Below are positions 12,539 to 32,000 of a stretch of DNA of 32,000 nucleotides, piece by piece. Under the pieces are notes generated by a model. That model did not search any database and was not told where the DNA came from. It was given only the letters and a program-made list of their open reading frames with translations. Origin of the DNA: Acaryochloris marina MBIC11017 (GTDB lineage: Bacteria; Cyanobacteriota; Cyanobacteriia; Thermosynechococcales; Thermosynechococcaceae); the NCBI RefSeq assembly GCF_000018105.1, contig NC_009927.1:300001-332000 (forward strand). The letters are read 5' to 3'. Position 1 is the first letter of the stretch; each line of letters starts with the position of its first letter. Made by a program: the position numbers and the translations under genes.

Positions 12539-13357
12539 TTATTTGGACTGGGATTTTTGAGGTTGAGACTGAGTTTGAGCCGTTCTCTGAGTCGCTGATT
12601 TGCGCCGATAACTATCGGCTTGAATTTCGATAATCAAGCCATGATGAATTAAGCGATCAATGGCAGCCACCGCCATCATCGAATCAGTGAAAATGTCATC
12701 CCATTGGCTGAAGGGTTGATTCGCTGTAATCAACAAACTTTTTCGTTCATAGCGATGCGCAATTAATTCAAACAGAACGGACGTTTCCGCTTCCGACTTT
12801 TTGCAATAGCCCAAGTCATCCAAGATCAACAGATCATAGCGGTCCAGTTTTTTGAGCATTGGATGCAGCTGCAGTTGGAGCTTCGCCTGTTGCAGTTGCT
12901 GGACCAATGCGTTGGCTGCAAAGAACTTCACCCGCTTACCGAATTCCAGCATCTTTTTGGACACCCCAGTGGCCAGATGTGTTTTTCCAACACCCGAGGG
13001 CCCCAGAATAAGGCAATTCTCGGCGCGCTCCAACCAACCCGGATCTGCGGCTAATTGCATCAAGGGAGCTGGATTGAGCTGGGGACAATGGCTAAAGTCA
13101 AAGTTGGTAAAACTTTTTGCGTTTGGGAGCCTGGCTTCGGTGAGGGCACGTTTTAGACGAGCTTGTTCTCTTCGTTGGGCCTCCGTTTCGCACAAGGCTA
13201 GTAAGAATTCCGCATAAGACCAGTTTTCCTGCATGGCTTGGGATTCGATAGATTCCCAATGGGTCAACATGTGGGAGAGCCTGAGCTTTTTTAAATAGAG
13301 GCTCAGGTGCTGGTAGGGGCTCAGCGGGGACTGAGCAGGAGGGGAGGAGTTTGTCAT
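12539..13357 (-). CDS. istB: IS21-family helper ATPase IstB
   Basis: Walker A LILGPSGVGKTHLA and Walker B LLILDDLGY. The ATG at 13357 is preferred over the TTG at 13381. Confidence 0.9.
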   Translation of the reverse strand: MTNSSPPAQSPLSPYQHLSLYLKKLRLSHMLTHWESIESQAMQENWSYAEFLLALCETEAQRREQARLKRALTEARLPNAKSFTNFDFSHCPQLNPAPLMQLAADPGWLERAENCLILGPSGVGKTHLATGVSKKMLEFGKRVKFFAANALVQQLQQAKLQLQLHPMLKKLDRYDLLILDDLGYCKKSEAETSVLFELIAHRYERKSLLITANQPFSQWDDIFTDSMMAVAAIDRLIHHGLIIEIQADSYRRKSATQRTAQTQSQPQKSQSK

Positions 13358-14834
13358 AAAGTTCAAGTGAATGTTGTTCAATGCTGAGTTCAGGAACCTG
13401 CTTCATCTGAGGCGGCTCAAACTGTTTTTTCAGGCGATTGAGGGTAAGGCTGGATGAGCGAAGCTGCTGCTGTAAGTACACTGCTACGGCCTGTTCTTTA
13501 TCTTGAACCGCAGCAATATACAGGGCTTCCACGATGATCTTGGCAGCCTGCTCCAGGTCAAATTGGGCTTTGAGCTGTTCCCAGATTTGGCGGTATTCAG
13601 GATTGGGAAGTAGGTCTGATTGCCAGGTGCAATAGATAAAAGCACGAGGCTTCAATCGCATTGAACCAATAACATGGCGATAGTTGATGCAACGGTCGCG
13701 ACGTTTGCCTTTGCCACTGACGCGCTTCCTCGGCAATTCCACCACCGGGTGTCGCTCCAGATAGCCGACAATCCGGTCATGGTATAGATGCAGTTCCAAT
13801 TGACGACCAATCAGTCGAGAAGGGACGGTGTATAGAATGCAGCGAACATCGATGGTGCTGCGTTTGCTGACTTTAGCCGTGAGCACTTCATAGTCAGGGG
13901 TTCGATATTTGGGCAGTGGTTGTAGATGGTCTTTCTCTTGCTCATACTTGGTTTGGCACTGCTGATTCAACTTGGCAACCTGTGCATCAATTAAGGCTTG
14001 ATACTCAGCAACGCTCGTAAAATCTGCACTGCCGCGCAGATAGATCGCCTGCTTAATTCGGTTCTTCAGATGACCATGGGGAGATTCAATGGAGCCATTC
14101 TCATGGGCTACACCTTTGTTGTTACGAGTGGGTTCTAGCCGATAGTGGTCACACAGTTCGTCGTACAGACGAGTGAGGTTTTTGGACCGGCGGCCGCCCA
14201 TGTTGCGATAGGCTGCACTCAAACTATCAGTACGATGCTGTGTAGGAACACCTCCACAGGCTGCAAAGGCATTTTGCAATCCTTCTGAGAGGGCGACAAA
14301 GCTTTCGCCTCCTTCGATGATCTGGGCATATCGCCAGCCGCTGTATCCCAGACGGTAATGGTAAATCAGGTGCTCAAAGGGTTTGCCGGCAATGGTAATC
14401 GTGATGCCTTTGAGTTCTGTAAAATCGGAGAACCCTTGTACCCCTGGTTCATGACGCAATTCAAACATCACTTCAGGGCTTGGTCCATGTAAGGCTTTCC
14501 ACGTTCTCACCCGACGTTGTAGGGTCCGCAGGACTTGGGGATACTGGCCTGGATACTTATCCTGCAGGTACTCATACAGGGTCATGGGTTTGAGGCGTGG
14601 GTCTCGACGCAGCATTGGTTCTAGCTCGTCTTCCCACACATCAGCTAAGGGGTCGGGAACGGTGCGTTGGTCCTGAAGGCGGCCGCGATTAGGTTGATGG
14701 GTGCCGGCCTCAATTCGTTGTCCGGTTCTTGTAGATATTTCGGCAATGTAAGCTGCATCAGCTTGTTTTAAGCCGAGGTCTCTTCCGTTCATATAAACAC
14801 GAGTATGATAGGAATCAATTCTTTTGTTAGGCAC
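13098..14834 (-). CDS. istA: IS21-family transposase IstA
   Basis: N-terminal HTH region and a DDE-type core. ELYDKLL occurs where IstA proteins usually end, but the ORF continues about 85 codons into istB in another frame. Confidence 0.85.
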   Translation of the reverse strand: MPNKRIDSYHTRVYMNGRDLGLKQADAAYIAEISTRTGQRIEAGTHQPNRGRLQDQRTVPDPLADVWEDELEPMLRRDPRLKPMTLYEYLQDKYPGQYPQVLRTLQRRVRTWKALHGPSPEVMFELRHEPGVQGFSDFTELKGITITIAGKPFEHLIYHYRLGYSGWRYAQIIEGGESFVALSEGLQNAFAACGGVPTQHRTDSLSAAYRNMGGRRSKNLTRLYDELCDHYRLEPTRNNKGVAHENGSIESPHGHLKNRIKQAIYLRGSADFTSVAEYQALIDAQVAKLNQQCQTKYEQEKDHLQPLPKYRTPDYEVLTAKVSKRSTIDVRCILYTVPSRLIGRQLELHLYHDRIVGYLERHPVVELPRKRVSGKGKRRDRCINYRHVIGSMRLKPRAFIYCTWQSDLLPNPEYRQIWEQLKAQFDLEQAAKIIVEALYIAAVQDKEQAVAVYLQQQLRSSSLTLNRLKKQFEPPQMKQVPELSIEQHSLELYDKLLPSCSVPAEPLPAPEPLFKKAQALPHVDPLGIYRIPSHAGKLVLCGILTSLVRNGGPTKRTSSSKTCPHRSQAPKRKKFYQL

Positions 14835-15168: not shown

Positions 15169-16653
15169 TCGACTATGAAGCCGTAGGAGTGTCAACAGGT
15201 ATTGTTTTGACTTTTTAGCAGCCTAATAAATGCCAGCCATTTTATTGGCTAGGTAAGTATCTATATTGGCTCCTTTCTTGTTAACTCTTTTCTTCTTTAT
15301 GTATAGGATAAGGACTTAACCGACTATCCGAGTTTCCGATACATTTTGCTCAATCGTATCGTCTCAAGAGTGACATGCAAGTTGTCTCAGGCTTATTCGG
15401 GTTTGCAATCTTGATTAAGAATTAGACTAGAGATATGGACAAGCTCTGAGATAGTTTTCCCTAATGACGGGAATATAGAAATCCTTAGACTTCCTATGCT
15501 AAAGAAAAGAGACTTATGCTGCCATAGGACCTGCCTGTTTAGAGTCCCACTTCTCCTGCTTCTTTAACAACGTCCAACAAAGGATGAGCAGTTTACGGGC
15601 CACAGCTATAATGGCTTGTTTTCTACGAGTCTTTTGACCACCACAAAGTCTTTGATACAGTGCTGCAGCCCAAGGATTGTAGCGTTGCATAATCCAAGCA
15701 GCCTCAACTAACGTAGCTCTTAAAATCCTTGGCCCACGCTGAGTTATCTTACCCATCCGATTCATTTCACCGGACTGATGTTGTCGCGGGACCAGCCCCG
15801 CATATGCACCGATCTGCCTAGCATTCTTAAACCGTTTGGGGTCATCTATAAAAGCCACCACTACTTCTGCTGTTTTACGCCCCACACCTGGAATTGATTC
15901 AAGCAGTTGAACTCTATTGTCTTGTTTGGCGATCTCAGTGAGTTTTTTATCGACAGCATGCAGTTGCTCCCATAAGGCATCTAACCGCTTCAGTTCTAGA
16001 TCGAGTTGACCCTGCCATAGGGACAGTAGCGAACATTCATCCATGTTTTGAGAATACTTTTTCAGTTGCTCTATTCTCGAAATTGTCCAAGCCTTCTCCC
16101 CTGCAGGAATAGAAATTCCTTGCTGGTTAAATACGGCTCGAATGGTGTTTTGGGCTCGTGTGGCATGGCTGACTAGGCGTTTACGATATTTGACCAGTTG
16201 CCGATATTGACGGGATTCAGCGGATGGCATGTAGACAGGGGAAATCTGGCCAAGTGCTGCTAATTTAGTCAACTTGAGCGCATCGTCTTTATCTGTCTTG
16301 CGTTTGACATGTTTCCAGTGCCAAGCTTCATGAGTAGGGTTGGCCACAATGGTGTTAAAGCCTTCTGCCTGACAAAGGTCGTACACCCAACCAGAGATCG
16401 TGCAAGCTTCGATAACGACCTGCTCTGGCTGAGTTTGGCTAAGTAGTGCTTTAAATTCACTAGCAAAGGATTTAAAGGAGAAAAAGAGGGTGTCGTTACT
16501 TTGGGTATCAAATAAACAAGCAGCTGAAGTGTACTTTCCAAGATCAATGCCTAAAATTTTCATAGGTCTTCTCCTGTGAGTTGGGGAATTAGGTGATAGG
16601 TCAATCCTTCTAGCTGAATTGTCCTGGTTTTCCAACTCACGGCTTACATGGAT
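15169..16653 (-). mobile_element. IS110-family insertion sequence (about 1485 bp) inserted in the IS6 transposase gene
   Basis: Excising it joins ...LSKTR to DMEGTKAFF in frame. The junction is ambiguous by 2-3 nt (aga versus cga). A possible subterminal imperfect inverted repeat is ATGTAAGCCGTGAG versus ATGAAGCCGTAGGAG. Confidence 0.8.
15514..16563 (-). CDS. IS110-family transposase (350 aa)
   Basis: MKILGIDLGK start with AGGAG upstream. The C-terminal IPGVGRKTAEVVVAFIDDPKRFKNARQIGAYAGLVPRQHQSG matches the Transposase_20 region. The track ORF 15514-17094 is an in-frame chimera with the IS6 N-terminus. Confidence 0.9.
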   Translation of the reverse strand: MKILGIDLGKYTSAACLFDTQSNDTLFFSFKSFASEFKALLSQTQPEQVVIEACTISGWVYDLCQAEGFNTIVANPTHEAWHWKHVKRKTDKDDALKLTKLAALGQISPVYMPSAESRQYRQLVKYRKRLVSHATRAQNTIRAVFNQQGISIPAGEKAWTISRIEQLKKYSQNMDECSLLSLWQGQLDLELKRLDALWEQLHAVDKKLTEIAKQDNRVQLLESIPGVGRKTAEVVVAFIDDPKRFKNARQIGAYAGLVPRQHQSGEMNRMGKITQRGPRILRATLVEAAWIMQRYNPWAAALYQRLCGGQKTRRKQAIIAVARKLLILCWTLLKKQEKWDSKQAGPMAA

Positions 16654-17094
16654 TCTGGTTTTGCTTAATCGTACATCCACTAAATTGCCAGCATTATCAA
16701 TGCCACGATAAAGGTAGCACCACCTGCCCTTGATTCGGACATAAGTTTCGTCTACAAGCCATACCTTGCCTACTTTTCCCTTCCGTTTAGTCTGAATCTG
16801 TTCCGTAAAGTGAGGCAGAAATCTTTCCTCCCAATCTCGCACGGTTTCATGAGTGAAAACAAAGCCCCGGATCAAGAAGTACTCGGCCACATCTCGATAG
16901 CTGAGTTTGTAGCGTACTCGAAGTAAAAGCACCTGGAATACTATGTCTGTCGGAACTTCAATAAAGTTGAAGGGAGTACCAGTTCGCTCATTGTAACTCC
17001 GCCGACACACTTTGCATCGAAACCGAGCATAGCCAAGGTCAGTCTTACTCTGAAGAAATGAGACTCGGGTTGAGTTGCAATGAAGACAATCCAT
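16654..17094 (-). pseudogene. IS6-family transposase, N-terminal fragment (1 of 3) with zinc-finger-like N-terminus
   Basis: CHCNS...CKVCRR, then WLVDETYVRIKGRWCYLYRGIDNAGNLVDVRLSKTR, which holds the first D of the DDE triad. Confidence 0.85.
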
Positions 17095-17292: not shown

Positions 17293-18834
17293 GTGACGCG
17301 CAAGGCTCATATCCCTGATATTCCTTCGATTAAGTCCGTGGAACAGGTCATCATGCTTCAGTCCAAATACGGACAAGATGTTGCTGCCTCCATTGATTTA
17401 GAACAGCAGTTGATTCATGACCAGTCCCCTGAAACGGCTCAGCAGTTGGCGGCACTAAAGGCATATCAGCAGAATCCCAATAACTGTCACAACGTCAGCT
17501 TTGCTCGATATCAAACTCGCTCGATTGCTTCACTGTTAGCACTCAGAGAGTCCTTGATGTTGTTGCTGAAAGATCATGGACATCCCATTGAGATGGAGGA
17601 ACTGAGAGACCGCAATGCCGATATCGTCGAGTCCTTCAGCAAAGTGCGGAAGCAGATGGAGGTGGAAACTGCGGTGATGCTGGGGACGGCTGATGGGGAG
17701 CGATTCACGGTGGAGCAGGCCATCCGAGTGATGGGAAGTTCTTCTGCCACCTATAAAGATACGTTGGATGCCAAAAAGGTCTTATTACAAGATGAGTTGC
17801 CCGGTGTTGAATTGACGGATGAATTCATTCATCAAGTCTGTGTGGAACATCGAGGACGGTTGAAGAGTGCCACGAAGTTGCATTGGATGTCTTATCACCC
17901 TGAAGTTGCTGAGGAATTAGACCGGAGAAACTTTATGAAACAGCTCAATAGTCAGTTCGTGTTGACTCATCGGTTAACTAATAATCGCATCCAGGTACAG
18001 TTACTTCGTGACCTGGGGGTATTTGACTTGGTAGATACTTACAACGTCACCAGCGCTGATTATGAAGCCTACGACAAGGCGTTGGAGAAAGGTCGCCAGG
18101 TGCAGCGGCAACGACAATCGTTGAGATTGGAGGTCAAGGGATTAGCTGGGCAGATCAGGGAAATTGTTCAGGAGCAGAAGGCCATTCAAGCCAAGTTAAC
18201 GGCATTGGGCAGAAAGGCTCATCCCAGGAAGACAACGCTGAAGGGGGAGCTGGAGCAGTTGGAGCAGCAGAAGCAGGGGCTGAAGGACCAGAAGCAGGGT
18301 TTAAGGGATGCTATTGAGCAGCAGTCTCAGGCATTCACCCAGGCCCGATATGAGCAGGTAGAGGCCCGGATGCGGATGGAAATCATGGTGATGACGGAGG
18401 ATGATCAGCGACTTGAGGATATCAAGGTGAAGGCGTTGGAATATCGCTATCAGATCTATCGCCATTTTCGGAATGTCATCAGTGAAGGTCAGAGTGCCGT
18501 TGCCATCGTCAATAAGTTGATTAAGCGAGTGGCCCATGAGTTGGTGAAGGTGGGAAGTGAGGAATCAGTGAGTCTCTATGTGATTCGCTATTCGGGCAAT
18601 GAAGCTTACAAAGACCAGATGCTGAAGGCGTTTCAGGTGAAGTGGAATCAGAGATTGGAGAAAAATAGACCAAGTTGTGAAATCTGTAAGAAAGACAGTG
18701 ATCTAATTACAGAAATGGAAAAGCGATCTGATATCAATGAGTTTGGTTGTGGATCTGATCAGGAAAACGGGCAGTTTGAGGGGAATGATGATGGAATTGA
18801 GGGGGGACCTGAGATGATAATGGGGTGCGATTGA
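17293..18834 (+). CDS. Coiled-coil hypothetical protein (513 aa from a GTG), probably the 3' part of a 5'-truncated gene
   Basis: Long ORF with the Q/E/K-rich segment LEQLEQQKQGLKDQKQGLRDAIEQQ. The frame is open without any start codon from 17098 to 17292, directly abutting the IS6 region. Confidence 0.6.
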   Translation: MTRKAHIPDIPSIKSVEQVIMLQSKYGQDVAASIDLEQQLIHDQSPETAQQLAALKAYQQNPNNCHNVSFARYQTRSIASLLALRESLMLLLKDHGHPIEMEELRDRNADIVESFSKVRKQMEVETAVMLGTADGERFTVEQAIRVMGSSSATYKDTLDAKKVLLQDELPGVELTDEFIHQVCVEHRGRLKSATKLHWMSYHPEVAEELDRRNFMKQLNSQFVLTHRLTNNRIQVQLLRDLGVFDLVDTYNVTSADYEAYDKALEKGRQVQRQRQSLRLEVKGLAGQIREIVQEQKAIQAKLTALGRKAHPRKTTLKGELEQLEQQKQGLKDQKQGLRDAIEQQSQAFTQARYEQVEARMRMEIMVMTEDDQRLEDIKVKALEYRYQIYRHFRNVISEGQSAVAIVNKLIKRVAHELVKVGSEESVSLYVIRYSGNEAYKDQMLKAFQVKWNQRLEKNRPSCEICKKDSDLITEMEKRSDINEFGCGSDQENGQFEGNDDGIEGGPEMIMGCD

Positions 18835-19458: not shown

Positions 19459-21867
19459 ATGGGGCTAGTCTATAAGGTAAAAAAAGATTTAAAGAGATTG
19501 GCGGCATTTGGCTGGGACGAATGGTTTGCCCAACATGGTCTAGATATTACTGCAAAGGACTTGGGTTCAGAGTGTCAAAAACTTCTTCCCGCAATACGTC
19601 GGGATTTACCTGGCCTTGGAGACTTTTCTGTTAGTGGAAAGCGAGGTATTGAACCGGGTAAACCAGCGCTGAGCTTGGTATATCACGCCTTGGCGAGTCC
19701 CAATGTTCATCCAACAAATAATGGCACCCCCCATAACAATCCGGATGCTTATCCTACATTAGGTGAACTTGACAATCTGGAAAATTACATTTACGGATTG
19801 GCTCGTCGTTCTATTGATTCCTTCGACAACCCAGTGCTGGCTGTATTTGCCTATCAGTATCGCATTGCAGAAAACAGCCCACACAAAATCCACGCTGATC
19901 TGGGTTTTTCTCGTTGTGGTGTATCGAGAATCGGTACTGAAGCACCACGTTATGATGCGCCGACGAGATCCTATACATCTTCACCTGTTACAAGTGAGCG
20001 AGGTGCTGCGGTACTACCTGCTCGCTATGGGGCATTTATTGCTGAGCGTCGTGCACCAACCAGTGATGATGCGGTTTTTCGTGCTTCGTCATCTGATAAT
20101 CAGCAAATATTCTTGTTCCCAGTACATAAGCTATTTGCTGGCGATGAATGTTTACTTGATGAGCTTGGTGCTCCCATGACGGTTGGTACGATTAATTTTA
20201 GTGAGTACCATATTAACGAGAAGTTGCGTCGCTTACACACAGATTCTCCAGATAATCCTGGTTTTATCGAGCCTTTAGATATTTTCGATATTGATGCTTT
20301 TCCGTTTGTTCGTGATTCGAACAATGATCCTGAGCTGGCTTCTTTAGAATATGTCGGTGATTCAGTGTTAGTTGTGTCTCATCACCATGATCAACTGACG
20401 CGCACAGCAACTCAGAAGGTAGACGGGGCAGAGCAGTTAGCTCGCTTTCAAGTCCCATCGGGAACAAGCAATCGTTTTTTCAGCTCCTTATCCTTGCCTG
20501 CCCCTTCAGGTAGAGCTGCACCGGAATACGCTAATATTCGCCATAAATTTGTGAGCAATGATACTACAGAAGATTTAAATCAGACGTTATCAGCAGATGA
20601 GTTTCGGGAGCAGGTGATCGAAAAAGGCGGATATGAAGCAGTGCATTTTATTGATGATTCCTGCGATGGCGTTATTGCTGTTGAGGTATCTGGCTTGAGT
20701 GACTTGCCAACATCTTGCGCTTATTCTTTGGTCACGGCTGTCGACTTTTTCCCATTGATTAGACAACTAGATATTCAACGTTGGGTAGAGCAACTATATA
20801 ACGCTGACATTGGTTTAAGTTTGTCTGATATTTCAAGAAATAATCGACTGCATTTCAACCAAGGGGGCCCTAGGCCATTGAGTGATGGACGTTTTGAACG
20901 TTCATTATCAGGTGAGGCTAGTTTAATTCATAGGTCACCGAATATGTCGCTGAAAAATCCACTCACACAAGCTTCAGCATTTCCACGCAGTGATCATGCT
21001 AATTTCACTGTCACAAGCATCATTGGCAGAGCTGCTCAGGGGGATGCTTTTGACCCCGGCGAAAGTCCCTCTCGGGTGCTTAGCTGGTTACCAGACGCGG
21101 CAGCCGATGTGTTTGCTCCTGGCTGGGATATTTCAACGCATATCGTGAATGGTTTGGGGACCTATGCTTCTTATGGTTTGGGCAGTCCATTTCTGGAAGA
21201 TGCAAAACTCTGTGCTGCTCTAAATTCATACTGGCCAGCTGCGGCACCAGATTCTTCTCGTACCTTCAACATCTCCGGGTCACCCACAGCGCAGCCATTG
21301 CTTGATAGCGAGTTGGGTTATCATCCGAATCATCCGCGAGTTAAGCTTAATGAAGTTATCAGTAATCGAGGTTGGGATGGGGAATACGGACCGTTCATCG
21401 AAAGAGAAGGCGGACAAGAATTTGTTAATTCTGCCCATCGCAATCGTTCTGACTATGTGAGTAACGCGCTTGCTGGCACAATTGGGTTCAATGGTCTGAA
21501 TCAGGTTGATGCGGGAGAAATGATCCAGCGCATGGACGTGTTGAGATTATGCTTTAGCGCTTTGTCAAGACAAACGGTGCCTAACAATGACCTATGGTTA
21601 GTTAATGCTGAGAAAGTTGATGACTGGAATCAATGGAATAGTGAGGAGTTGCCGAAAGCTGATTCGGTTCTTTCAGGTGCAGGTTATATCTACCGATTTG
21701 TGATTGTTGATAATAGCTCTGTAGAAGATGTTGCGACAAATCCCGTCACACGTGAACGCTATAGCTTGCAAGAGATTTATGAGTTTCAAGTGAGTGCTAA
21801 AAAGCTATTTTTAAAGACTGCTGGTCATTGGAACCCTCCGATTGACATTGATATAGTAATTGAATGA
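19459..21867 (+). CDS. Large hypothetical protein (802 aa), no recognisable family
   Basis: A single uninterrupted ORF flanked by roughly 550-620 bp of AT-rich non-coding DNA on each side. A weak SD-like AAGAGAG lies upstream of the ATG. There is no signal peptide or transmembrane segment evident. Confidence 0.75.
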   Translation: MGLVYKVKKDLKRLAAFGWDEWFAQHGLDITAKDLGSECQKLLPAIRRDLPGLGDFSVSGKRGIEPGKPALSLVYHALASPNVHPTNNGTPHNNPDAYPTLGELDNLENYIYGLARRSIDSFDNPVLAVFAYQYRIAENSPHKIHADLGFSRCGVSRIGTEAPRYDAPTRSYTSSPVTSERGAAVLPARYGAFIAERRAPTSDDAVFRASSSDNQQIFLFPVHKLFAGDECLLDELGAPMTVGTINFSEYHINEKLRRLHTDSPDNPGFIEPLDIFDIDAFPFVRDSNNDPELASLEYVGDSVLVVSHHHDQLTRTATQKVDGAEQLARFQVPSGTSNRFFSSLSLPAPSGRAAPEYANIRHKFVSNDTTEDLNQTLSADEFREQVIEKGGYEAVHFIDDSCDGVIAVEVSGLSDLPTSCAYSLVTAVDFFPLIRQLDIQRWVEQLYNADIGLSLSDISRNNRLHFNQGGPRPLSDGRFERSLSGEASLIHRSPNMSLKNPLTQASAFPRSDHANFTVTSIIGRAAQGDAFDPGESPSRVLSWLPDAAADVFAPGWDISTHIVNGLGTYASYGLGSPFLEDAKLCAALNSYWPAAAPDSSRTFNISGSPTAQPLLDSELGYHPNHPRVKLNEVISNRGWDGEYGPFIEREGGQEFVNSAHRNRSDYVSNALAGTIGFNGLNQVDAGEMIQRMDVLRLCFSALSRQTVPNNDLWLVNAEKVDDWNQWNSEELPKADSVLSGAGYIYRFVIVDNSSVEDVATNPVTRERYSLQEIYEFQVSAKKLFLKTAGHWNPPIDIDIVIE

Positions 21868-22422: not shown

Positions 22423-23807
22423 GGCTCTCTGGGAATTAGCGTGTAGCAGTCCTACATTTAGTGTGTTTCCTTTTTCATCCCTATGGAATGATCTGAGGTA
22501 GTACTTCAGAGCAATGGCGTAATGGATAACTCAATTCGCATCCCGCTCAACCTTCCTGATATTCGAGTTCTAGAGCTATCGAAGACTGAGAGAGGGGATT
22601 GGCTCATCAAGATTGAGAGTACGCTTCAAGGAACAACCTGTCATCAATGCGGACGTGAGATTACTGACCTCCATTGTCATGATCAGCCTTTTCGGATTCG
22701 TCACCTGCCATTATTTGAAGTCCCCGTTTACTTAGAAATTCGGCCCAAGCGTTATCGATGCAAGTATTGCGATGACCATCCCACAACAACTCAACATTTA
22801 GAATGGCACGAACCTCGCAGTCCCAATACAAAAGCATATGAGCGTTGGCTTCTGCGAATCTTGATCAATTCAACGGTCTCAGATGTTGCCAGAAAACTAG
22901 GCGTTAGTGAGGATATCGTCAGTGGAATCATTGATCGTTGGATTGCCGCTCAAGTTGACTGGAGCGAATATGCAGACCTCAAAGTTATGGGGATGGATGA
23001 GATTTCTCTCAAACGAGGCCATCGTGATTTTGTGGTTTTGATCACGATTCCTACGACGGATGGGGTGGATATATTGGCAGTTCTAGCCGACCGTAAACAG
23101 CAGACAGTGGCAAATTTCCTTCAATCGATTCCCATTGATTTACGCCAAACCATTGAGCGCGTCTGTACGGACATGTACCAAGGATTTGTCAGTGCAGTCC
23201 GAGAACAATTGCCGCAAGCCAAAATTGTCATTGACCGCTTTCATGTGACCAAAGCCTATCGTAATTGTGCTGATACGGTTCGTAAACGTGAGGTCAAACG
23301 TCTACGACGAGAGCTCTCTAAGCAAGAGTATGACAGCATCAAAGGCGCGATGTGGCCTTTTAGAAAACGACCAGAGAATCTGAAAGAGTCAGAGCAACAA
23401 CTCCTTGAGCGATTGTTTGCTTATTCTCCACAACTGAAACAGGCGTACAACCTCCGAGAGAAACTCACGCAGATATTTGAGGGCAGGTACACCAAGCACG
23501 GAGCTAAATGTGCCATCCGTGCTTGGTGTAAACAAGTACTCAAGAGTGACATCAAGGAATTCGATTGTTTTCTGACCACTATCAATAATTGGATGGACGA
23601 GATGACCAACTATTTCCTGGAGGGGTGGACCAGTGGTTTTGTGGAAGGATTTAATAACCGAGTCAAAGTCTTAAAAAGACGATGCTACGGTATTTTCGAT
23701 ATTGAAAGACTCTTCCAAAGGATTTCTCTTGACCTCAATGGGTATCAGACATTCGCTGTGACCTAAACACTATATCTAGCGGCTACCACGCTAATTCCCG
23801 GAGAGCC
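22423..23807 (+). mobile_element. ISL3-family insertion sequence (1385 bp), apparently intact
   Basis: Terminal inverted repeats are GGCTCTCTGGGAATTAGCGTG (22423-22443) and the reverse complement of 23787-23807, GGCTCTCCGGGAATTAGCGTG (20 of 21 match). It has an 8-bp TSD and a single transposase ORF. Confidence 0.95.
22522..23766 (+). CDS. ISL3-family transposase (414 aa)
   Basis: N-terminal zinc-finger-like CHQCG...CKYC. Also MDEISLKRGHRDFVVLI, CTDMYQGF, DRFHV and GFVEGFNNRVKVLKRRCYG. Confidence 0.95.
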   Translation: MDNSIRIPLNLPDIRVLELSKTERGDWLIKIESTLQGTTCHQCGREITDLHCHDQPFRIRHLPLFEVPVYLEIRPKRYRCKYCDDHPTTTQHLEWHEPRSPNTKAYERWLLRILINSTVSDVARKLGVSEDIVSGIIDRWIAAQVDWSEYADLKVMGMDEISLKRGHRDFVVLITIPTTDGVDILAVLADRKQQTVANFLQSIPIDLRQTIERVCTDMYQGFVSAVREQLPQAKIVIDRFHVTKAYRNCADTVRKREVKRLRRELSKQEYDSIKGAMWPFRKRPENLKESEQQLLERLFAYSPQLKQAYNLREKLTQIFEGRYTKHGAKCAIRAWCKQVLKSDIKEFDCFLTTINNWMDEMTNYFLEGWTSGFVEGFNNRVKVLKRRCYGIFDIERLFQRISLDLNGYQTFAVT

Positions 23808-24049: not shown

Positions 24050-25087
24050 TCAATTTGTTGATGAGCCAAGATCCCTAGCGAAATTATTTCTTAAGTGCAC
24101 TGAGTAATATTCAGGCGCATGATCAATTAGACTGAATTTAATATCATTAAAATTTTTTGAAATGATACTTGCTGTTGACTCAAAAATATTCTGGGAAGAA
24201 TTAATCAAAATATCATTATAATCTACTTTTTTACTCGGGTAAGTAGAAATATTGGTATTCTTATCAATATGTTTTAATTCTCCTACATGTTGATATAACT
24301 CTGGAAGTTGAAAAGAAGATAAAGGGGAATTAAACCGAGGGAAAGGAATATTCGGAAATGGTGTTTCGACAAGTTCTACTGATATAATTAAATCAGATAG
24401 AGGAAACTTTGTAATTGCATCATTATTATTAACAAATCTGAATATCTTTCCTTCTAGTTTTTTGTCAATACTATCAACAAATTCTGAGTTTCCTACTTTT
24501 GGGCAACCATAAGTGTAGATTCCTTGTGCTTTACCGAATCTGCTAGCGGCAAGAATAGCAAGAGCACCTCCTAGACTATGTCCAGTGAACCATAAGTACA
24601 TTTCTTGGTTTGTATCAATGAGCTCTTGGAGATATCCTTTTAAGTTTGGACCTTTCTCCCAAATCTCATCCAGAGCAGCTTTAAAACCCTCATGAGTTTT
24701 ACCTATTATGGAAGAATCAACCAGCTTTAATCGAGCATCGATGAGGACATCTTGGACAAAATTTGATCTCTTTATCTCAGTACCACGAAAAGAGATAATA
24801 GAGAACTTGTCATTACTAGCTACATAGCATTGAGTGCTACTACCTGAGAAGAGTTTAGCCTTATTAAGACCAATCTTTTTGAAATGTTGCTCACACACAG
24901 GTTCATTTTCTATATATGCTAAAAAAGCGCTATCTGCTAAACGCCAAGCATTAACTAATTGATATTCATTGCTATCATACTTAAAATGGTGAGTATCACC
25001 TTCTTCAAAATAATTGTATTCATGATTAGGTGGAATTAATCTATTGAGATTTTGAATAGAACCTGAAGGTGGTTGTACTATTTCCAT
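24050..25087 (-). CDS. Class-3 (fungal-type) lipase family alpha/beta hydrolase, low GC
   Basis: Nucleophile elbow FTGHSLGGALAILAA and IISFRGTE strand motif. There is no signal peptide. Hand-counted lines give about 23-38% G+C. Confidence 0.85.
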   Translation of the reverse strand: MEIVQPPSGSIQNLNRLIPPNHEYNYFEEGDTHHFKYDSNEYQLVNAWRLADSAFLAYIENEPVCEQHFKKIGLNKAKLFSGSSTQCYVASNDKFSIISFRGTEIKRSNFVQDVLIDARLKLVDSSIIGKTHEGFKAALDEIWEKGPNLKGYLQELIDTNQEMYLWFTGHSLGGALAILAASRFGKAQGIYTYGCPKVGNSEFVDSIDKKLEGKIFRFVNNNDAITKFPLSDLIISVELVETPFPNIPFPRFNSPLSSFQLPELYQHVGELKHIDKNTNISTYPSKKVDYNDILINSSQNIFESTASIISKNFNDIKFSLIDHAPEYYSVHLRNNFARDLGSSTN

Positions 25088-25821: not shown

Positions 25822-27507
25822 CTATTTTGCCAGTATGTCATTCAATGCTGAAATCGCAGGCGCAAACAAATACTCTCCACCAGTCGGCACAACAAAATCT
25901 TGTTGGGTTTTAATTTCAGTCGTCTGGTGTTCACCGGGGAACTCGATATGCCGTTCTCTATTCCCTGTCGATCCGTTCTGGCCTATGACCATGTCGTGCC
26001 CACCTTGATTTGGCTGAATTGCTGAGTTCGCCCAACGTCGTTGTAAAAACTCAAACTGATCTTCAATACTTGAGTTATAACAAACAAACATTAAACCTCT
26101 GTCTAGCAGTAAGTCCTCATCGCTTAAATCTGGATTGCCAGCGATCGCTGGTCCATAAGGTATGCCGCGGCGCAAGATCATTCTAGCTAAGTTATCTTCT
26201 GGCTTTCCTAAATCGGTAACACTTTCTCTCGGATTGACTTTTCTAATGTGCGCGAAATGAGGGCAAACTTTGGCGAGAAAATCAGCTTTCGCCTGTGGAA
26301 ACGAGTCTCCTGGATAATGGCTATCACTGAACTCAATTTCGCTTGTGTTGTCGTCAAATAGAAAATGATTGTTTGCAAACGCGTTTTTACCAAGCTCAGG
26401 CAATTCACTGTTAGGGCTTCGCATCAATGGAGCACCACTAGGCCAGCGACCAACCAAACGAGAGGCAAACTCTATTACGTCAATGTTTAATGATTCCGCA
26501 GTGCTACTAACAAACCCCCAAAACGCGGACACATCTTGATGTAAGCGTCTTACTACCACGTAAGAGCCAAGCTTTGCCCAGCCGGGAATATTTGTCTGGA
26601 TTCGCCCTTTAAGATATAAGTGTTCAGTGCTTTGACGTGGCTCTCCTAAAAGAAACTGACCTGGCCAAACCAATAACTGCCCTGGCTTGGCAAAATAATC
26701 TTTGCGTTCGTCGGTACCAGCCACATAACGTGGGGTGATAAAATCGCCAGGGCGTTCAGACAGTTTTCCCCGTATTCCCGGCTGCGAAATGCCATCTTTA
26801 AAGCCAAAATGTTCGTGGCCTCTAAACTTGCCTGGTAACCGCTCCCCTGGTTGTTCATATTGCAACTCGATGCCCTGATCTTGCGCATGTTGTTTTATCA
26901 ATGCCACAAATTCTTGCAACTGATCTTTGGAGTTCGCAGCGGTCGTGATCATCATGTCGATCTCATTATTGGTACCACCAAAACGCCAATTCGATTGATG
27001 GCCAGGACTAGATTCATCGCTAGGATCACCTAAGAAAGTTGACCTTTTGGCCATTCCCAAACGAAAACTGTCATCACCAAATTTATTGGCTTCTTCATCC
27101 GAGGTTAGTTTTGCTATGCCCGTGTATGAAAATGACAAATTCAACCAAGCTGACGACAAATAAGTTTCCCTTTGACCCAGTTGAGCTCGGCGTTGCCGAT
27201 GTATTTTTCGAAACTTTAAAACTTCATAAGCGCTGGATATAGATACATAGGGGGAAATTAAACGCAAGAATTGTTTAGGAGAGCTGCCAACTCCAAAACT
27301 TAAAAACAAAAAGTGCTCATAATTGGTATTAAACCCGAGCAGTAAGTTTCCTTGTATATCTGACAGTGTGGCTTCGTTGTAAATAGGTTCGTCAGCCGAT
27401 TGATCGTATGGACTGGGCTCAGGTTTATGCTCTAGCGGTGTATCGTCAATATTTGCTTCAATAGTTGAAAATAAGTCTTTTAGTTCCGTGAAATTAGCGT
27501 TGTCCAT
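25822..27507 (-). CDS. DyP-type haem peroxidase (561 aa, long form, no Tat or Sec signal)
   Basis: DIQGNLLLGF, FGFKDGISQPGIRG (GxxDG), HFAHIRKVNPRE (proximal His region), LRRGIPYG and GLMFVCYNSSIEDQFEFLQRRW. AGGAGA lies about 10 nt upstream of the ATG, within the end of the upstream gene. Confidence 0.9.
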   Translation of the reverse strand: MDNANFTELKDLFSTIEANIDDTPLEHKPEPSPYDQSADEPIYNEATLSDIQGNLLLGFNTNYEHFLFLSFGVGSSPKQFLRLISPYVSISSAYEVLKFRKIHRQRRAQLGQRETYLSSAWLNLSFSYTGIAKLTSDEEANKFGDDSFRLGMAKRSTFLGDPSDESSPGHQSNWRFGGTNNEIDMMITTAANSKDQLQEFVALIKQHAQDQGIELQYEQPGERLPGKFRGHEHFGFKDGISQPGIRGKLSERPGDFITPRYVAGTDERKDYFAKPGQLLVWPGQFLLGEPRQSTEHLYLKGRIQTNIPGWAKLGSYVVVRRLHQDVSAFWGFVSSTAESLNIDVIEFASRLVGRWPSGAPLMRSPNSELPELGKNAFANNHFLFDDNTSEIEFSDSHYPGDSFPQAKADFLAKVCPHFAHIRKVNPRESVTDLGKPEDNLARMILRRGIPYGPAIAGNPDLSDEDLLLDRGLMFVCYNSSIEDQFEFLQRRWANSAIQPNQGGHDMVIGQNGSTGNRERHIEFPGEHQTTEIKTQQDFVVPTGGEYLFAPAISALNDILAK

Positions 27508-27511
27508 CTTT

Positions 27512-28498
27512 TTAATTCTCCTGCCCTTTTTGGGTACCTGCTGAGCCCACTATGCCGACCGTAATGTGCTCGGCTAGCTGTGCGCCATACTGAATTTCAT
27601 GGCCGCCAATGGTCAAGTCACTTACTTGAAAACCTAAAGCTTTAGGAACGGAATACTCCAAACGCATAACCTTGCCATTGGAACCTCTCTTGGGTTGCCA
27701 CCACTCAATAGGGGCAGGTGAGCCGTCCGGCTGAGCGATTCCACTGTTGTCCCAACCAAAAATATAAATGCCAATAGGTTCTTGAAGGCTGACGTATAAT
27801 TTTTTGCGCAATAGCATGTGGACGTCGTAATCGACTCTTGGATCGACCGATGTCGTATATGTTGCAAAAGCTGGGTTAGCCTGATAGTTGTTGGCAGCAT
27901 CAAGCGGGAACATGCTCATTTCTTCTGCCAGGCCAATAGCAGCGCCGAGAGTATTAATGTCTTGAGTGAAATGCATTATGCCGTCAGTTGTGTTCCAGCG
28001 ATTTAGAATATCATAGTCGCCATTTCCATTCATTAGGTCATCTTTTTTAACTGGTTTATCTAGGGTGTCTTTATAAATTTCAACGACTTTATCAGGATCG
28101 AATTTCCACATCTCTTCATAGTAGTTGTGCAGCTCAGTGGTAAAAGTAATCCTTGTAATGGCGTCATCGTCTTTATGGACATACCATTCAAAATATTCGT
28201 CTTGCTCATGCCCTCTATCTTTTCGGTTCGCATTGTCTGCAGTTCTATATGCTTCCCATTTGTTGTCTCGTAAGTTTGGCAATAAGACCCTTCTTGGAAA
28301 TCCCATCCAGCTAATGGTTTTTTCTCCAATGATATCGACATCCACCTCAGCTGGATTATAAAAATGCCCCCCATTGGGGCCTGGAGTCTCTTCTGCGATA
28401 AGGCCTTTTACAAATTCATGCCATTTTTCATAGAAATCACTATCGTCATCAAAATCTTTAATAGACGCAGGTGTGTCAAATTGAGTAATCAGAGACAT
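27512..28498 (-). CDS. Hypothetical protein (328 aa) translationally coupled to the DyP peroxidase gene
   Basis: AAGGAG lies 7 nt upstream of the ATG. Its stop is separated from the dyp ATG by 4 nt. No family motif was recognised. Confidence 0.75.
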   Translation of the reverse strand: MSLITQFDTPASIKDFDDDSDFYEKWHEFVKGLIAEETPGPNGGHFYNPAEVDVDIIGEKTISWMGFPRRVLLPNLRDNKWEAYRTADNANRKDRGHEQDEYFEWYVHKDDDAITRITFTTELHNYYEEMWKFDPDKVVEIYKDTLDKPVKKDDLMNGNGDYDILNRWNTTDGIMHFTQDINTLGAAIGLAEEMSMFPLDAANNYQANPAFATYTTSVDPRVDYDVHMLLRKKLYVSLQEPIGIYIFGWDNSGIAQPDGSPAPIEWWQPKRGSNGKVMRLEYSVPKALGFQVSDLTIGGHEIQYGAQLAEHITVGIVGSAGTQKGQEN

Positions 28499-29104
28499 TT
28501 CACTCTCCTTAGCTGATGGAAATGAAGAATGGTATTATTTGGACGCCACTAAACATATTATCCAAAGTAAATACACATACATTGTCAAGATAGACAATCA
28601 ATAAATGTTTGTGAAATATATGTTATTAAGCGAAAACATTCCCTTTATAAATTTGACTGGTTTGTAGCTCTGATACTTTCAAATCTAAATCGTTAACCAA
28701 GCTTGGAATAGAATTAAGAGCTCCATGGCATCTGTCTAGACACGAGTGATCCGTAGCGGCCTATTCTCATCTACAGGTCCTACTTTAATCAATCTTTCTT
28801 GCCCCGTAGTTACAAAAGGATGATCCTGATCAAAAAATAAACGTGGTCCTCGATCAGAATTTGGAAAATCTTGCAATATGTTGCTTAAAGGCCTTAGCCA
28901 AAGCTCTTTCTAGCTATGGAATAAAACCCAAGTGAGTTGTGAATTAGGTGGATAATTTTCAATCGGCATTATGCTCCCGCAAGCACCCCCCAGATCAGCA
29001 GGTTCCTAGGAGTTGAGCAATGCTTCACCTAGAGATTCGAGCTGATCCCTTTACTCGATAATAGCTATCTCTATCTTCACCCAGCTGAAATCACCTGCTA
29101 AGAC

Positions 29105-32000
29105 TTAGTTTTCAACTGCCCCCAATGCCAATAGTGTGTGTTTTTGAGCTGGGGATAAACCTTTCATCTGAGTAATGTTCATGCCTGCATAGGGCTTAGT
29201 GGGTCTTAGTGTTCTTATACACTCACCAGTTTGAACATGCCAAAGTTTTATAGTTCCGTCAAAACTGCTACTAATAAGACGCTGACCATCAGAACTAAAG
29301 GCTACTGAGGTGACACCATTTGTATGCCCCTCTAAGATTGCCAAATGCTTATGTGTTTCAACATCCCAACATCTAATCGTATGGTCTAAACTTGCAGTGG
29401 CAAGTAGTTGACCATTTGGACTAAAGGCAACATCCCAAATTTGACCTGAATGTCCTTCAAAAATACATATACAATCGTTAGTCTTAAAGTCCCAAAGTCT
29501 AGCTGTTTGATCAACACTCCCACTAGCGATAAAGTGCTCATTTGGGCTAAATGAGACGGAACTCACCCCCGATGAATGCCCTTTCAGAGTGTTTAAACAC
29601 CTACCTTCTTGGATATCCCAAAGCTTAACAGTGCGATCAAAACTTCCACTCGCTAGTATTTCAGCATTCGGACTAAATGAGACAGACCAGACCCAATGGC
29701 CATGTCCCTGAAATGTCTCCAAACATTCGCCGCTATGGATATCCCAAAGTTTGGCAGATTGATCTAACCCACTACTAGCAAGGAATTTTCCTTTCGGGTG
29801 AAATGCCAGTGACCAAATTCCATTAGAATGCCCTTTTAAGATCTTGATGCACTGCCCATTAGAAATATTCCAAAGTCTTATGGTTCGATCACCTGTTCCA
29901 CCCCCACTAGCAATGATTTGGTCATGAGGGCAATAAGCGACGGATCTGATAGCATCTGTATGCCCTGGAAAGTCTAAGCAATTGTGGTCTGAAAGTGACC
30001 AGACCCTTAGGACTTGGGCATCACCACCACTAACAAGAATCTGTTCATGTTGCTTCTCTGTTTCGGAATAGTTAAATGAACCGAAGGGAGTAGTTGCAAA
30101 AATGGCTTCAAATATGGTGAAAGTACATCCCGATAATGTTCTCAAGCATCTGCCTTTATTGTAATCCCATAGCCTAATGGAACCATCTTGGCTACTACTA
30201 GCCATAATTTTTTGAGTAGGATTTATGGCCACAGACCAAACCCAATTTGTATGCCCCAATAAAGTTTTTAAACATTTTCCAGTTCTAATGTCCCAAATTT
30301 TTATCAGTTGATCTGCGCTACCACTAGCAAGGTAATGACCAGAGGAACATAATGCAATCGAGCGTATAGAATTTGAGTGTCCAAACAACTTCTGTATACA
30401 TTCACCACTCTGTAGATTCCATACCCTGATAATTGGATCATCGCAGGCACTCACGAGCATTTGTCCATCAGGACTGTACGCGATTGACCAGACCCATCCA
30501 GCATGACCAGCCAATACTTTCAGGCATTGGCCGCTCTTAACCTCCCAAATCCGAATGGTTTGGTCAGCATATCCACACGCTAGTTCATGATTATCAGGAC
30601 TAAAGGCAATTGATCGGGCTGCTGCCCGGTATCTGAAGCTCTTCAAAAATTGCCCTGTTTGACTATTCCACAGCCTAACAGTGAAGTCATCACTACAACT
30701 TGCAAGGAGTGTACCGTCGGGACTGAATGCTACTTCCCAGATGAAATTAGTATGTCCCGATAAAAGTTTTAAACATTCTCCAGTACGTACGTTCCAAAGC
30801 CTAACAGTCTGGTCTGGGCCAGCACTGGCCAGCAGATGATTGGTCGGACTGAAGGCCAAAGATTTGACCCAGTTTGTATGTCCGCTACAAGTTAAGAGGG
30901 GTTGCCCATCAGGAACTCGAAGAAGACGAATCTCGCCTTTAAAATCTCCAGCGGCAATGAGCTTGCCATCTGGGGAGAAAGCAATCGATAGGATACCTCC
31001 AAAATCCTTGGAAAAGACTGACTGAGATAGATCTGAGTGAGTGAACTTAACCCCATGCAAGTTGAGTCCTCGTAGATCAGCTTGCCGAATTGTGAGGTGA
31101 GAAAAGTCGTAACCACAGAAATCTACAGGTAACTGTCGGAGCAAATTCAGAACATTTCCTGCGACATAACCTGCTTCTTCCGACGATTTTCCCCGCACCA
31201 CTGAAAGGAGTTGAACCAAGCAGGCTTCAAGGTGTGCTCTACTGCCTAGGACCTTTACCAGGCTAACAATTAAGGGTTGCAAGATCAGGCGAATCTGAGT
31301 GTCTTTGATATAGTCTTTCGCCTGTGCCTTTATGAGTGCATGAGTACGGAACAGATGCAATTGATTTTCCTGTCTTTCCTCATACTGTTGTTGCTCCTGA
31401 ATCTCGGTACAAATTTGCTGAATGAATTTGTGGGCTGTGAACTCCATCACCACAGGTTGTTGGGTGAATCCAGTCTCAGTTTGGTCAACCAAAGATCGAC
31501 GTTGCAGCGAGGTTATCGACTGCAACAGGTCACCTGGGAGAACTTGAACCATCAAATCGAGGGCCAATTGCTCTAACTGGGCAGGCTCGCGATTAATGGT
31601 GAGCCAATACATTACAGCCTGTTCTATCTCTGATAGCCTTTCAAACTGCTTGTTGAGGAGGTCGTAGATATCCTCAAGAACGAATGGCTCCATCTGTGAG
31701 AAGCTGAGGAAACGAGAAAGACTTCCTTCAAAGCATTCTTTAATGGTTGATGACACAATTTTTAGAGCTAAGGGATTACCCGCATAGTGCTTGTTTATAG
31801 CGGACCACTCTTTTTCCGTTCCTGTGAATATGCCCTTAGTTTTAACCAAGGTCTGACAAGCATTAGTTGATAACCCTTTCAACTGCAAGCATCGAACTGG
31901 CAGGGAGTCTCCCTCCATCGCTGCAATTCCTTGTGGTTTTTCCCGAGCGGTCACCAAAACACAACTGCTGTGGGTAGCTTCTCCAAACATTTCAAAGAGC
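29105..32000 (-). CDS. STAND NTPase of the NB-ARC/AP-ATPase type fused to 14 WD40 repeats (partial; N-terminus lies beyond the window end)
   Basis: VLVTAREKP and GNPLALKIV are NB-ARC signatures. A pentapeptide-like linker FCGYDFSHLTIRQADLRGLNLHGVKFTHSDLSQSVF follows, then 14 units of the form GHxxxVxSVAFSPDGxxLAS...D.T.(R/K)LW. The frame is open to position 32000. Confidence 0.9.
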   Translation of the reverse strand, partial: LFEMFGEATHSSCVLVTAREKPQGIAAMEGDSLPVRCLQLKGLSTNACQTLVKTKGIFTGTEKEWSAINKHYAGNPLALKIVSSTIKECFEGSLSRFLSFSQMEPFVLEDIYDLLNKQFERLSEIEQAVMYWLTINREPAQLEQLALDLMVQVLPGDLLQSITSLQRRSLVDQTETGFTQQPVVMEFTAHKFIQQICTEIQEQQQYEERQENQLHLFRTHALIKAQAKDYIKDTQIRLILQPLIVSLVKVLGSRAHLEACLVQLLSVVRGKSSEEAGYVAGNVLNLLRQLPVDFCGYDFSHLTIRQADLRGLNLHGVKFTHSDLSQSVFSKDFGGILSIAFSPDGKLIAAGDFKGEIRLLRVPDGQPLLTCSGHTNWVKSLAFSPTNHLLASAGPDQTVRLWNVRTGECLKLLSGHTNFIWEVAFSPDGTLLASCSDDFTVRLWNSQTGQFLKSFRYRAAARSIAFSPDNHELACGYADQTIRIWEVKSGQCLKVLAGHAGWVWSIAYSPDGQMLVSACDDPIIRVWNLQSGECIQKLFGHSNSIRSIALCSSGHYLASGSADQLIKIWDIRTGKCLKTLLGHTNWVWSVAINPTQKIMASSSQDGSIRLWDYNKGRCLRTLSGCTFTIFEAIFATTPFGSFNYSETEKQHEQILVSGGDAQVLRVWSLSDHNCLDFPGHTDAIRSVAYCPHDQIIASGGGTGDRTIRLWNISNGQCIKILKGHSNGIWSLAFHPKGKFLASSGLDQSAKLWDIHSGECLETFQGHGHWVWSVSFSPNAEILASGSFDRTVKLWDIQEGRCLNTLKGHSSGVSSVSFSPNEHFIASGSVDQTARLWDFKTNDCICIFEGHSGQIWDVAFSPNGQLLATASLDHTIRCWDVETHKHLAILEGHTNGVTSVAFSSDGQRLISSSFDGTIKLWHVQTGECIRTLRPTKPYAGMNITQMKGLSPAQKHTLLALGAVEN

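Follow-up and report, generated by a model that had tools for sequence, protein, structure and literature searches.

Dye-decolorizing peroxidases (DyPs) are haem peroxidases whose physiological roles are largely unknown (PMC8197335). Reviews place them in a small set of partner contexts, namely EfeUOB, Sco/ECuC/DtpA with GlxA, and encapsulin, and describe fusions to pyruvate-formate-lyase and P450 domains (PMC8197335, PMC9719856); in the current class scheme, the C/D-type enzymes of about 500 amino acids (aa) or longer make up class V (PMC9719856). Here we analyze a gene pair from a 32,000-nucleotide (nt) stretch of Acaryochloris marina MBIC11017 (NC_009927.1, positions 300,001 to 332,000; the window), in which a 561-aa DyP is encoded directly downstream of a 328-aa protein of the Pfam family DUF8225 (PF26676). 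An earlier reading of the same DNA, made without database searches (the sequence-only reading), had proposed a tight two-gene operon for a DyP and a conserved partner of no recognizable family. The pairing of DUF8225 with DyPs extends far beyond chance, and in this locus it matches none of the described partner contexts.

The evidence for this pairing comes from gene order across genomes. In a scan restricted to one genome per species, an alignment-based query recovered 79 DUF8225 loci and a single-protein query none. In 71 of these loci the next gene downstream, on the same strand, encodes a relative of the window DyP; the 71 span at least seven phyla and include Acidobacteriota, Actinomycetota, Bacteroidota, Planctomycetota, Pseudomonadota and Myxococcota. 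Annotated plasmids carrying the pair come from Bacillus thuringiensis, B. cereus, Mycetohabitans, Ralstonia, Nostoc and Sinorhizobium, and in all six metagenome contexts a long DyP directly follows DUF8225 on the same strand, amid unrelated flanking genes. The two-gene operon read from the window is borne out both by its own coupling junction and by homologous ones: the DyP start codon lies 10 nt or less from the DUF8225 stop in 58 of 80 pairs, and 43 of the 80 show a 4-nt, ATGA-type overlap of start and stop. Across loci, the more one of the two proteins has diverged, the more so has the other (Pearson r = 0.82). When all flanking open reading frames (ORFs) were clustered, no further conserved gene emerged; the remaining frequent clusters are shadow ORFs that overlap the pair.

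The association also holds when approached from the peroxidase. In the annotated plasmid collection, DUF8225 is encoded directly upstream of 10 of the 11 DyPs that are at least 34% identical to the window DyP (hosts: Acaryochloris, B. thuringiensis, B. cereus, two Mycetohabitans, two Ralstonia, Nostoc and S. meliloti SM11). The eleventh, from B. mycoides, lacks it. DUF8225 is likewise upstream of a DyP on an R. sophoriradicis plasmid at 31% identity. Plasmid DyPs at about 30% identity or below, for example those of Streptomyces, mostly stand alone, with the exception of a Bradyrhizobium DyP (30%) that has DUF8225 just upstream.

Among the cluster representatives of the family, the two proteins are also found joined in one polypeptide, in either order. 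DUF8225 precedes DyP in P0182, which is encoded on a 3.7-Mb contig, and in P0197; DyP precedes DUF8225 in P0191, P0218, P0225, P0245 and P0257. The last two, of ~1100 aa, stem from EukProt transcriptomes of the unrelated protists Diplonema japonicum and Didymoeca costata, and may be either genuine eukaryotic genes or bacterial contamination. Fusion in both orientations points to a shared function and, probably, to physical contact between the partners. DUF8225 is in addition fused to PLD and S8 peptidase domains.

The 328-aa protein has an isoelectric point of 4.7, no cysteine and a maximum Kyte–Doolittle mean over 19 residues of 0.95; by hydropathy, no transmembrane or signal segment is seen, in agreement with the acidic N-terminus and signal-less character noted earlier. 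Its membership of DUF8225 was assigned indirectly: the PF26676 annotation is precomputed for all 120 homologues listed (144 homologues were found in a large protein collection), and the window protein shares a 90% cluster with one relative, P0001, and carries every family-invariant residue. The earlier verdict that the protein cannot be assigned thus holds in part only, in that it does belong to a catalogued family, but to one with no function attached. Scans of the protein itself with Pfam, NCBIfam and PADLOC gave no usable match to a characterized family, a FAS_I_H match at E = 0.033 being below threshold and rejected, and sequence and profile searches of the PDB returned chance matches only; this agrees with the earlier remark that the protein does not resemble EfeU/EfeO or encapsulin shells. 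An exhaustive HMMER search places the size of the family at 710 clusters at 50% identity. Where its members are named in sources, they are called ‘hypothetical protein’, and literature searches on DUF8225, PF26676, the protein accessions and DyP partners found no paper in the library covered.

The structure prediction called for by the sequence-only reading gave a confident AlphaFold2 model from a 63-sequence alignment, with a mean predicted local distance difference test (pLDDT) score of 94.1 and a predicted template-modelling (pTM) score of 0.92. A Foldseek search of the PDB with this model reached E = 1.1 at best, with a template-modelling (TM) score of 0.14 or less, and the matches from PDB and BFVD together (best E ~0.4–1, TM ≤0.14) were rejected as noise. 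Calling the modelled fold ‘new’ would mean only that it has no solved relative. Across 217 near-full-length members (99 distant), 16 residues are at least 97% conserved, namely W64, E101, Y102, E104, W105, E122, Y126, Y142, Y162, N166, N169, H176, N182, D219, R271 and R279. The most conserved motif, Q-x-E-Y-x-E-W, corresponds to the HEQDEYFEW string of the window protein; the peptide HEQDEYFEWYVHKDDD occupies residues 97–112. This residue pattern looks more like an active or ligand-binding site than a scaffold.

The downstream protein belongs to the DyP superfamily, matching PF21105 (DyP_N) with 57 bits (cut-off 27.5), PF20628 (Dyp_perox_C) with 33.7 bits (cut-off 20) and TIGR01413 with 132.5 bits (cut-off 100.5). 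Its catalytic residues align with those of 7anv: the distal Asp238 of the GXXDG motif (FGFKD238G), the proximal His420 (AH420IRK) and the distal Arg446 (R446RGIPYG). All three are conserved in each of 75 DUF8225-linked DyPs, and the linked enzymes are accordingly predicted to be catalytically intact. The closest solved relatives are of the D-type, with the ancestral enzyme 7anv (E = 3e-59) joined by the fungal 6fsk, 4au9 and 2d3q, and scores are weaker for 5c2i and 4g2c, which are C-type; under the published scheme (PMC9719856), this proximity to D-type structures assigns the 561-aa protein, as judged by its sequence, to class V. Membership of class I, which contains the EfeB proteins exported by twin-arginine translocation (Tat), is not supported, because its TIGR01412 score of 33.3 bits falls far short of the cut-off (428) and residues 1–50 contain no twin-arginine motif, as had been read before. 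Nor does the protein resemble encapsulin cargo: no shell gene occurs among the neighbours or the recurrent flank families, and inspection by eye of the C-terminus, APAISALNDILAK (ending ...NDILAK, as quoted earlier), shows no targeting peptide. The protein has a variable N-terminal extension of ~47 aa, and its first ~40 residues differ among relatives.

DyPs are not the only partners of the wider family. In all eight genome loci without a downstream DyP, DUF8225 is directly preceded by a gene for a protein of ~520–560 aa, here termed family X. Pfam has no model for X, of which at least 678 homologues were counted; it occurs at L072–L085, L089, L090 and L094–L098 (for example, L078:2435–3997 and L089:6001–7587), always directly upstream of a DUF8225 subfamily where not fused to it. 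Its AlphaFold2 model is confident (pLDDT 90.6), no fold relative was found in the PDB, and it carries a conserved motif, GKGPFESHxxGxLxMKELKxPW. We considered whether family X is a c-type haem protein and rejected this in general: CXXCH is present only in the cyanobacterial copy, and of 96 matches to the motif 91 have PFESH, none with a cysteine. Fusions of X with DUF8225 exist, some of them extended by a PLD domain, and Rhizobium pR132503 has the order X, DUF8225, S8 peptidase, PLD. Some X loci harbor a second, convergent pair, in which a 400-aa DUF8225 paralogue is followed by a short DyP of 410 aa.

A further subfamily of long DUF8225 proteins (~577 aa), represented on plasmid 1 of Paracoccus denitrificans PD1222, is paired with family Z, a group of ~500-aa proteins without a Pfam model encoded directly downstream in ~60 of 80 metagenome loci (L101:7292–8800, the P. 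denitrificans protein WP_011750861.1, and L103–L182). With a C-terminal CXXCH in 52 of 53 members and a signal-like N-terminus in 48 of 53, family Z very probably comprises exported c-type haem proteins. The DUF8225 protein of such a pair, in contrast, would be signal-less. Tyrosinase was considered as a general partner and rejected, since it occurs in 6 of 80 loci, and DUF8225, X, Z and DyP showed no remote similarity to one another by hhalign. On Bacillus mycoides plasmid p114811, a DyP gene is followed by one for an 824-aa protein without a family match (L100:3998–8053), with a patatin-like phospholipase gene upstream on the opposite strand; the 824-aa protein may be another alternative DyP partner.

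There are thus four kinds of DUF8225 partner (long DyP, short DyP, X and Z), each subfamily being locked to one of them. DUF8225 is the constant element, tied to one large partner that is, by sequence, a haem protein in the DyP- and Z-linked subfamilies. The sequence-only proposal of a conserved DyP partner is upheld by adjacency across phyla and by the fusions, but requires amendment, as distant DUF8225 subfamilies pair with proteins other than DyPs. No well-characterized family was matched and the homologues do adjoin DyP genes, so that on neither of the two points on which that proposal could have failed did it do so.

Other genes recur more loosely around the pairs. Genes for LodA/GoxA-family oxidases, which carry cysteine tryptophylquinone (CTQ), lie beside DUF8225 pairs in four unrelated loci (L008:1492–3291, L087:7250–9019, L097:12122–15210 and L099:12873–15934), accompanied in L008, L097 and L099 by genes for LodB-like flavoproteins. 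Ferritin-like (PF12902) and radical S-adenosylmethionine (SAM) genes recur in L008, L096, L097 and L102; one ‘ferritin-like’ protein from Nostoc has a LodA_C domain as well. Lipid-acting enzymes (PLD, patatin, lipase) are repeatedly encoded near DUF8225 genes in different lineages. For DUF8225, DyP, the lipase and family X, PADLOC returned no anti-phage defence match.

Our preferred interpretation, to which we attach about even confidence, is that the pair constitutes a self-contained, horizontally mobile module for a cytoplasmic, two-component, haem-dependent oxidative enzyme: a 1:1 complex in which DUF8225 would provide the substrate or redox site and DyP the H2O2-driven oxidant. The two proteins would be made in about equal amounts and then assemble in the cytoplasm. 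DUF8225, whose invariant set is enzyme-like in composition (Glu, Asp, His, Asn, Arg, Tyr and Trp), would contribute a specific substrate-binding or catalytic site centred on Q-x-E-Y-x-E-W. DyP would supply oxidizing power as compound I, drawing electrons either from a DUF8225-bound substrate or from the conserved tyrosine and tryptophan residues of DUF8225 itself. An aromatic or phenolic compound, or one derived from an amino acid, would probably take part in the chemistry.

Several points weigh against this interpretation. A close DyP of B. mycoides (38% identity) has no DUF8225. In the closest relative (L001, a metagenome contig; DUF8225 90% identical), insertion sequence (IS) elements split the DyP gene, with three transposase genes interrupting it (L001:10991–14941), but leave the DUF8225 gene undamaged; in that strain the module is decaying. 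DUF8225 has no recognizable cofactor or metal motif and a single invariant histidine, and the window protein has no cysteine. The sporadic neighbours (LodA-like oxidases, peptidases, PLD and lipase) are inconsistent and point to no single pathway. The physical complex is inferred from the genetic linkage and the fusions, and, given that DUF8225 lacks any structural or sequence relative, its chemistry wholly so. Moreover, because the partner differs by subfamily, a role for DUF8225 as the thing acted upon fits at least equally well.

A broader and more tentative reading is, in our view, possible rather than probable. DUF8225 would be a new fold at the core of an unrecognized class of redox enzymes, always accompanied by a dedicated oxidant partner that was exchanged in evolution (long DyP, short DyP, Z or X) and distributed from many bacterial phyla to protists, the latter with DyP-DUF8225 fusions. 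In DyP-linked members, DyP would generate or drive, within DUF8225, a Tyr/Trp-based radical or a protein-derived cofactor. If true, bacterial class V DyPs would thereby gain a first defined physiological role.

Another explanation, unlikely in our estimate yet the best placed of the rivals, makes the two genes a maturation pair: DyP would be a dedicated maturase that oxidizes tyrosine or tryptophan residues of DUF8225 to a protein-derived cofactor or cross-link, after which DUF8225 would be the real enzyme and act alone. Quinoprotein-modifying enzymes are encoded beside their targets. In favour of this reading stand a constant DUF8225 with a swapped oxidant (long DyP, short DyP, the c-haem protein Z, X and, occasionally, tyrosinase), six invariant aromatic residues, including Tyr102 between the glutamates of EYxEW, and the recurrence nearby of genes for LodA/GoxA quinoproteins, flavoproteins of LodB type and radical SAM enzymes in L008, L087, L097, L099 and L102. 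Permanent fusions in both orders and 1:1 translational coupling would, however, be unusual for a single-turnover maturase; the lack of cysteine in the window DUF8225 protein excludes a CTQ-type cofactor, and no consensus of a known cofactor is present, the invariant Y102, W105 and W64 matching none of Cys-Trp, Trp-Trp or N-Y-D/E.

We consider it improbable that DUF8225 is a non-catalytic helper, that is, a caddie or chaperone for haem loading, folding or unconventional export of DyP, comparable to MelC1 for tyrosinase. The tightly coupled order of helper gene then enzyme gene would suit such a role, as would the absence of a signal peptide from the DyP, whereas DyPs often act extracellularly (PMC8197335); export of signal-less DyPs through other systems is documented (PMC12398576). 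Against this, 16 invariant polar or aromatic residues persist in subfamilies paired with DyP, X or Z, proteins unrelated to one another in sequence, which is unlike a helper dedicated to a single fold. Fusions of DUF8225 to domains other than DyP (PLD and S8 peptidase) exist as well, and 328 aa is large for a caddie.

Similarly improbable, in our view, is that DUF8225 is an oxidase making H2O2 or an organic hydroperoxide for the coupled DyP. Known parallels are GlxA with DtpA and the fusion of lipoxygenase to a catalase-related haem protein. A cytoplasmic DyP does require a peroxide supply, the fusions suggest channelling between the two proteins, and there is precedent for a DyP acting with an H2O2-producing oxidase (PMC4736821). 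Yet DUF8225 lacks flavin-, copper- and iron-binding signatures and offers only its one invariant histidine and no cysteine; several loci have a separate H2O2-producing LodA-like oxidase instead, and neither X nor Z is a known peroxidase. Finally, mere co-travel of two functionally unrelated genes on mobile DNA, which the IS-rich window and the presence of the pair on plasmids of many hosts might suggest, is effectively refuted by the linkage statistics: order and strand are the same in 71 of 79 genome loci with all flanking genes different, start/stop overlaps are frequent, fusions arose independently in both orders, and the converse association stands at 10 of 11.

The two-component interpretation bears on a gap in the understanding of DyP function that is widest for non-fungal class V enzymes. 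DUF8225 represents a fourth partner context, strongly conserved and sometimes fused, and so offers a concrete handle on the cellular job of these peroxidases; it also suggests that studies of isolated bacterial class V DyPs may have missed half of the enzyme. As a large family with a confidently modelled fold that lacks a solved relative, and with a clear candidate active site, DUF8225 is a good target for structural biology and enzymology, and tractable hosts are available in Paracoccus denitrificans, Rhizobium, Bacillus thuringiensis and Sinorhizobium meliloti.

In the window itself, the coordinates of the pair, its signals and the surrounding genes are as given in Table 1. The junction reads as the earlier note had it: the DUF8225 stop codon TAA (27514–27512) is separated from the dyp ATG (27507–27505) by a 4-nt spacer, AAAG (27511–27508), and the dyp Shine–Dalgarno sequence AGGAGA (27522–27517) lies within the end of the DUF8225 gene, 9 nt ahead of the ATG; the DUF8225 gene has its own AAGGAG. 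The region contains two sigma-70-like sites against 9.5 expected in shuffles, so that the promoter match upstream of the pair carries no statistical weight. Plasmid pREC1 of Acaryochloris marina MBIC10699 (NZ_AP026076.1) matches the window at 100% identity and is annotated there, in order, with an NB-ARC domain protein, a hypothetical protein, a Dyp-type peroxidase and a lipase family protein, the middle two under the same accessions as here. Neither outer gene is a member of the module: the upstream NB-ARC/WD40 gene does not recur in homologous loci, and relatives of the class 3 lipase are found in none of 88. Further away, the window carries mobile elements, two large ORFs without a family match and a protein with an animal haem peroxidase domain.

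Table 1 Features of the DUF8225–DyP locus and its surroundings, in window coordinates
Feature	Position	Strand	Description
DUF8225 (PF26676) gene	27512-28498	-	ORF, 328 aa, WP_012167248.1, soluble acidic protein
DyP haem peroxidase gene, assigned to class V (D-type-like)	25822-27507	-	ORF, 561 aa, WP_012167247.1
Translational-coupling junction	27505-27522	-	Read from sequence: Shine–Dalgarno, stop, spacer, dyp ATG
DUF8225 gene Shine–Dalgarno and ATG	28496-28510	-	AAGGAG 28510-28505, 6 nt 5' of ATG at 28498
Sigma-70-like promoter match	28587-28615	-	TTCACA-17-TATCTT; lies in the 606-bp gap that precedes the pair; weak consensus match
NB-ARC/WD40 STAND protein gene	29105-31990	-	Upstream of the pair; runs past the window end; 1268 aa in the annotated record
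Class 3 lipase gene	24050-25087	-	734 nt downstream of DyP
ISL3 transposase	22522-23766		Mobile element
IS110-type element	15514-17094		Mobile element
Mu-like element	13098-14834		Mobile element
Large ORF	17293-18834		No family match
Large ORF	19459-21867		No family match
Animal haem peroxidase domain protein	5699-8515	-	938 aa; PF03098, E = 8e-26; ~17 kb from the DyP pair

Among the described systems, EfeUOB/FepABC resembles the present locus in that one operon combines a DyP with dedicated partners that are not peroxidases (PMC8197335, PMC9719856). However, EfeB is a Tat-exported class I DyP, whereas the window DyP has no twin-arginine motif and fails TIGR01412; DUF8225 is similar to neither EfeO nor EfeU, and the window pair has no accompanying permease gene. 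The encapsulin–DyP operon is likewise a two-gene module, whose shell protein binds its DyP physically (PMC9719856, PMC8346489). By contrast, encapsulin cargo DyPs are short and end in a targeting peptide, the window DyP being long and of predicted class V, and encapsulin has the HK97 fold, whereas DUF8225 matches no solved structure and its gene precedes that of the DyP. In Streptomyces, DtpA is tied to one partner enzyme, GlxA, and its Tyr-derived cofactor (PMC4736821). DtpA differs in being an extracellular Tat substrate, and GlxA in being a copper enzyme that is neither adjacent nor fused to DtpA; DUF8225 has neither a copper site nor any cysteine.

Pre-methylamine dehydrogenase and LodA are likewise encoded beside a dedicated oxidizing partner, MauG and LodB, respectively, and such a partner may be a haem protein. 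Neither of these partners is a DyP: MauG has two c-type haems, and LodB is a flavoprotein. LodA-like genes recur near DUF8225 loci, and DUF8225 itself has no known cofactor-forming motif. The fungal and ancestral D-type DyPs (7anv, 6fsk, 4au9 and 2d3q) share with the window DyP the aligned GXXDG motif, proximal histidine and distal arginine, but the fungal enzymes are secreted, stand-alone proteins of ~450–490 aa, whereas the window DyP is bacterial, signal-less and locked to DUF8225. The module thus shares with known DyP systems the logic of an operon with a dedicated partner and none of their defining parts, which marks it as a DyP system whose partner, from a family catalogued but functionally blank, is new and widely conserved.

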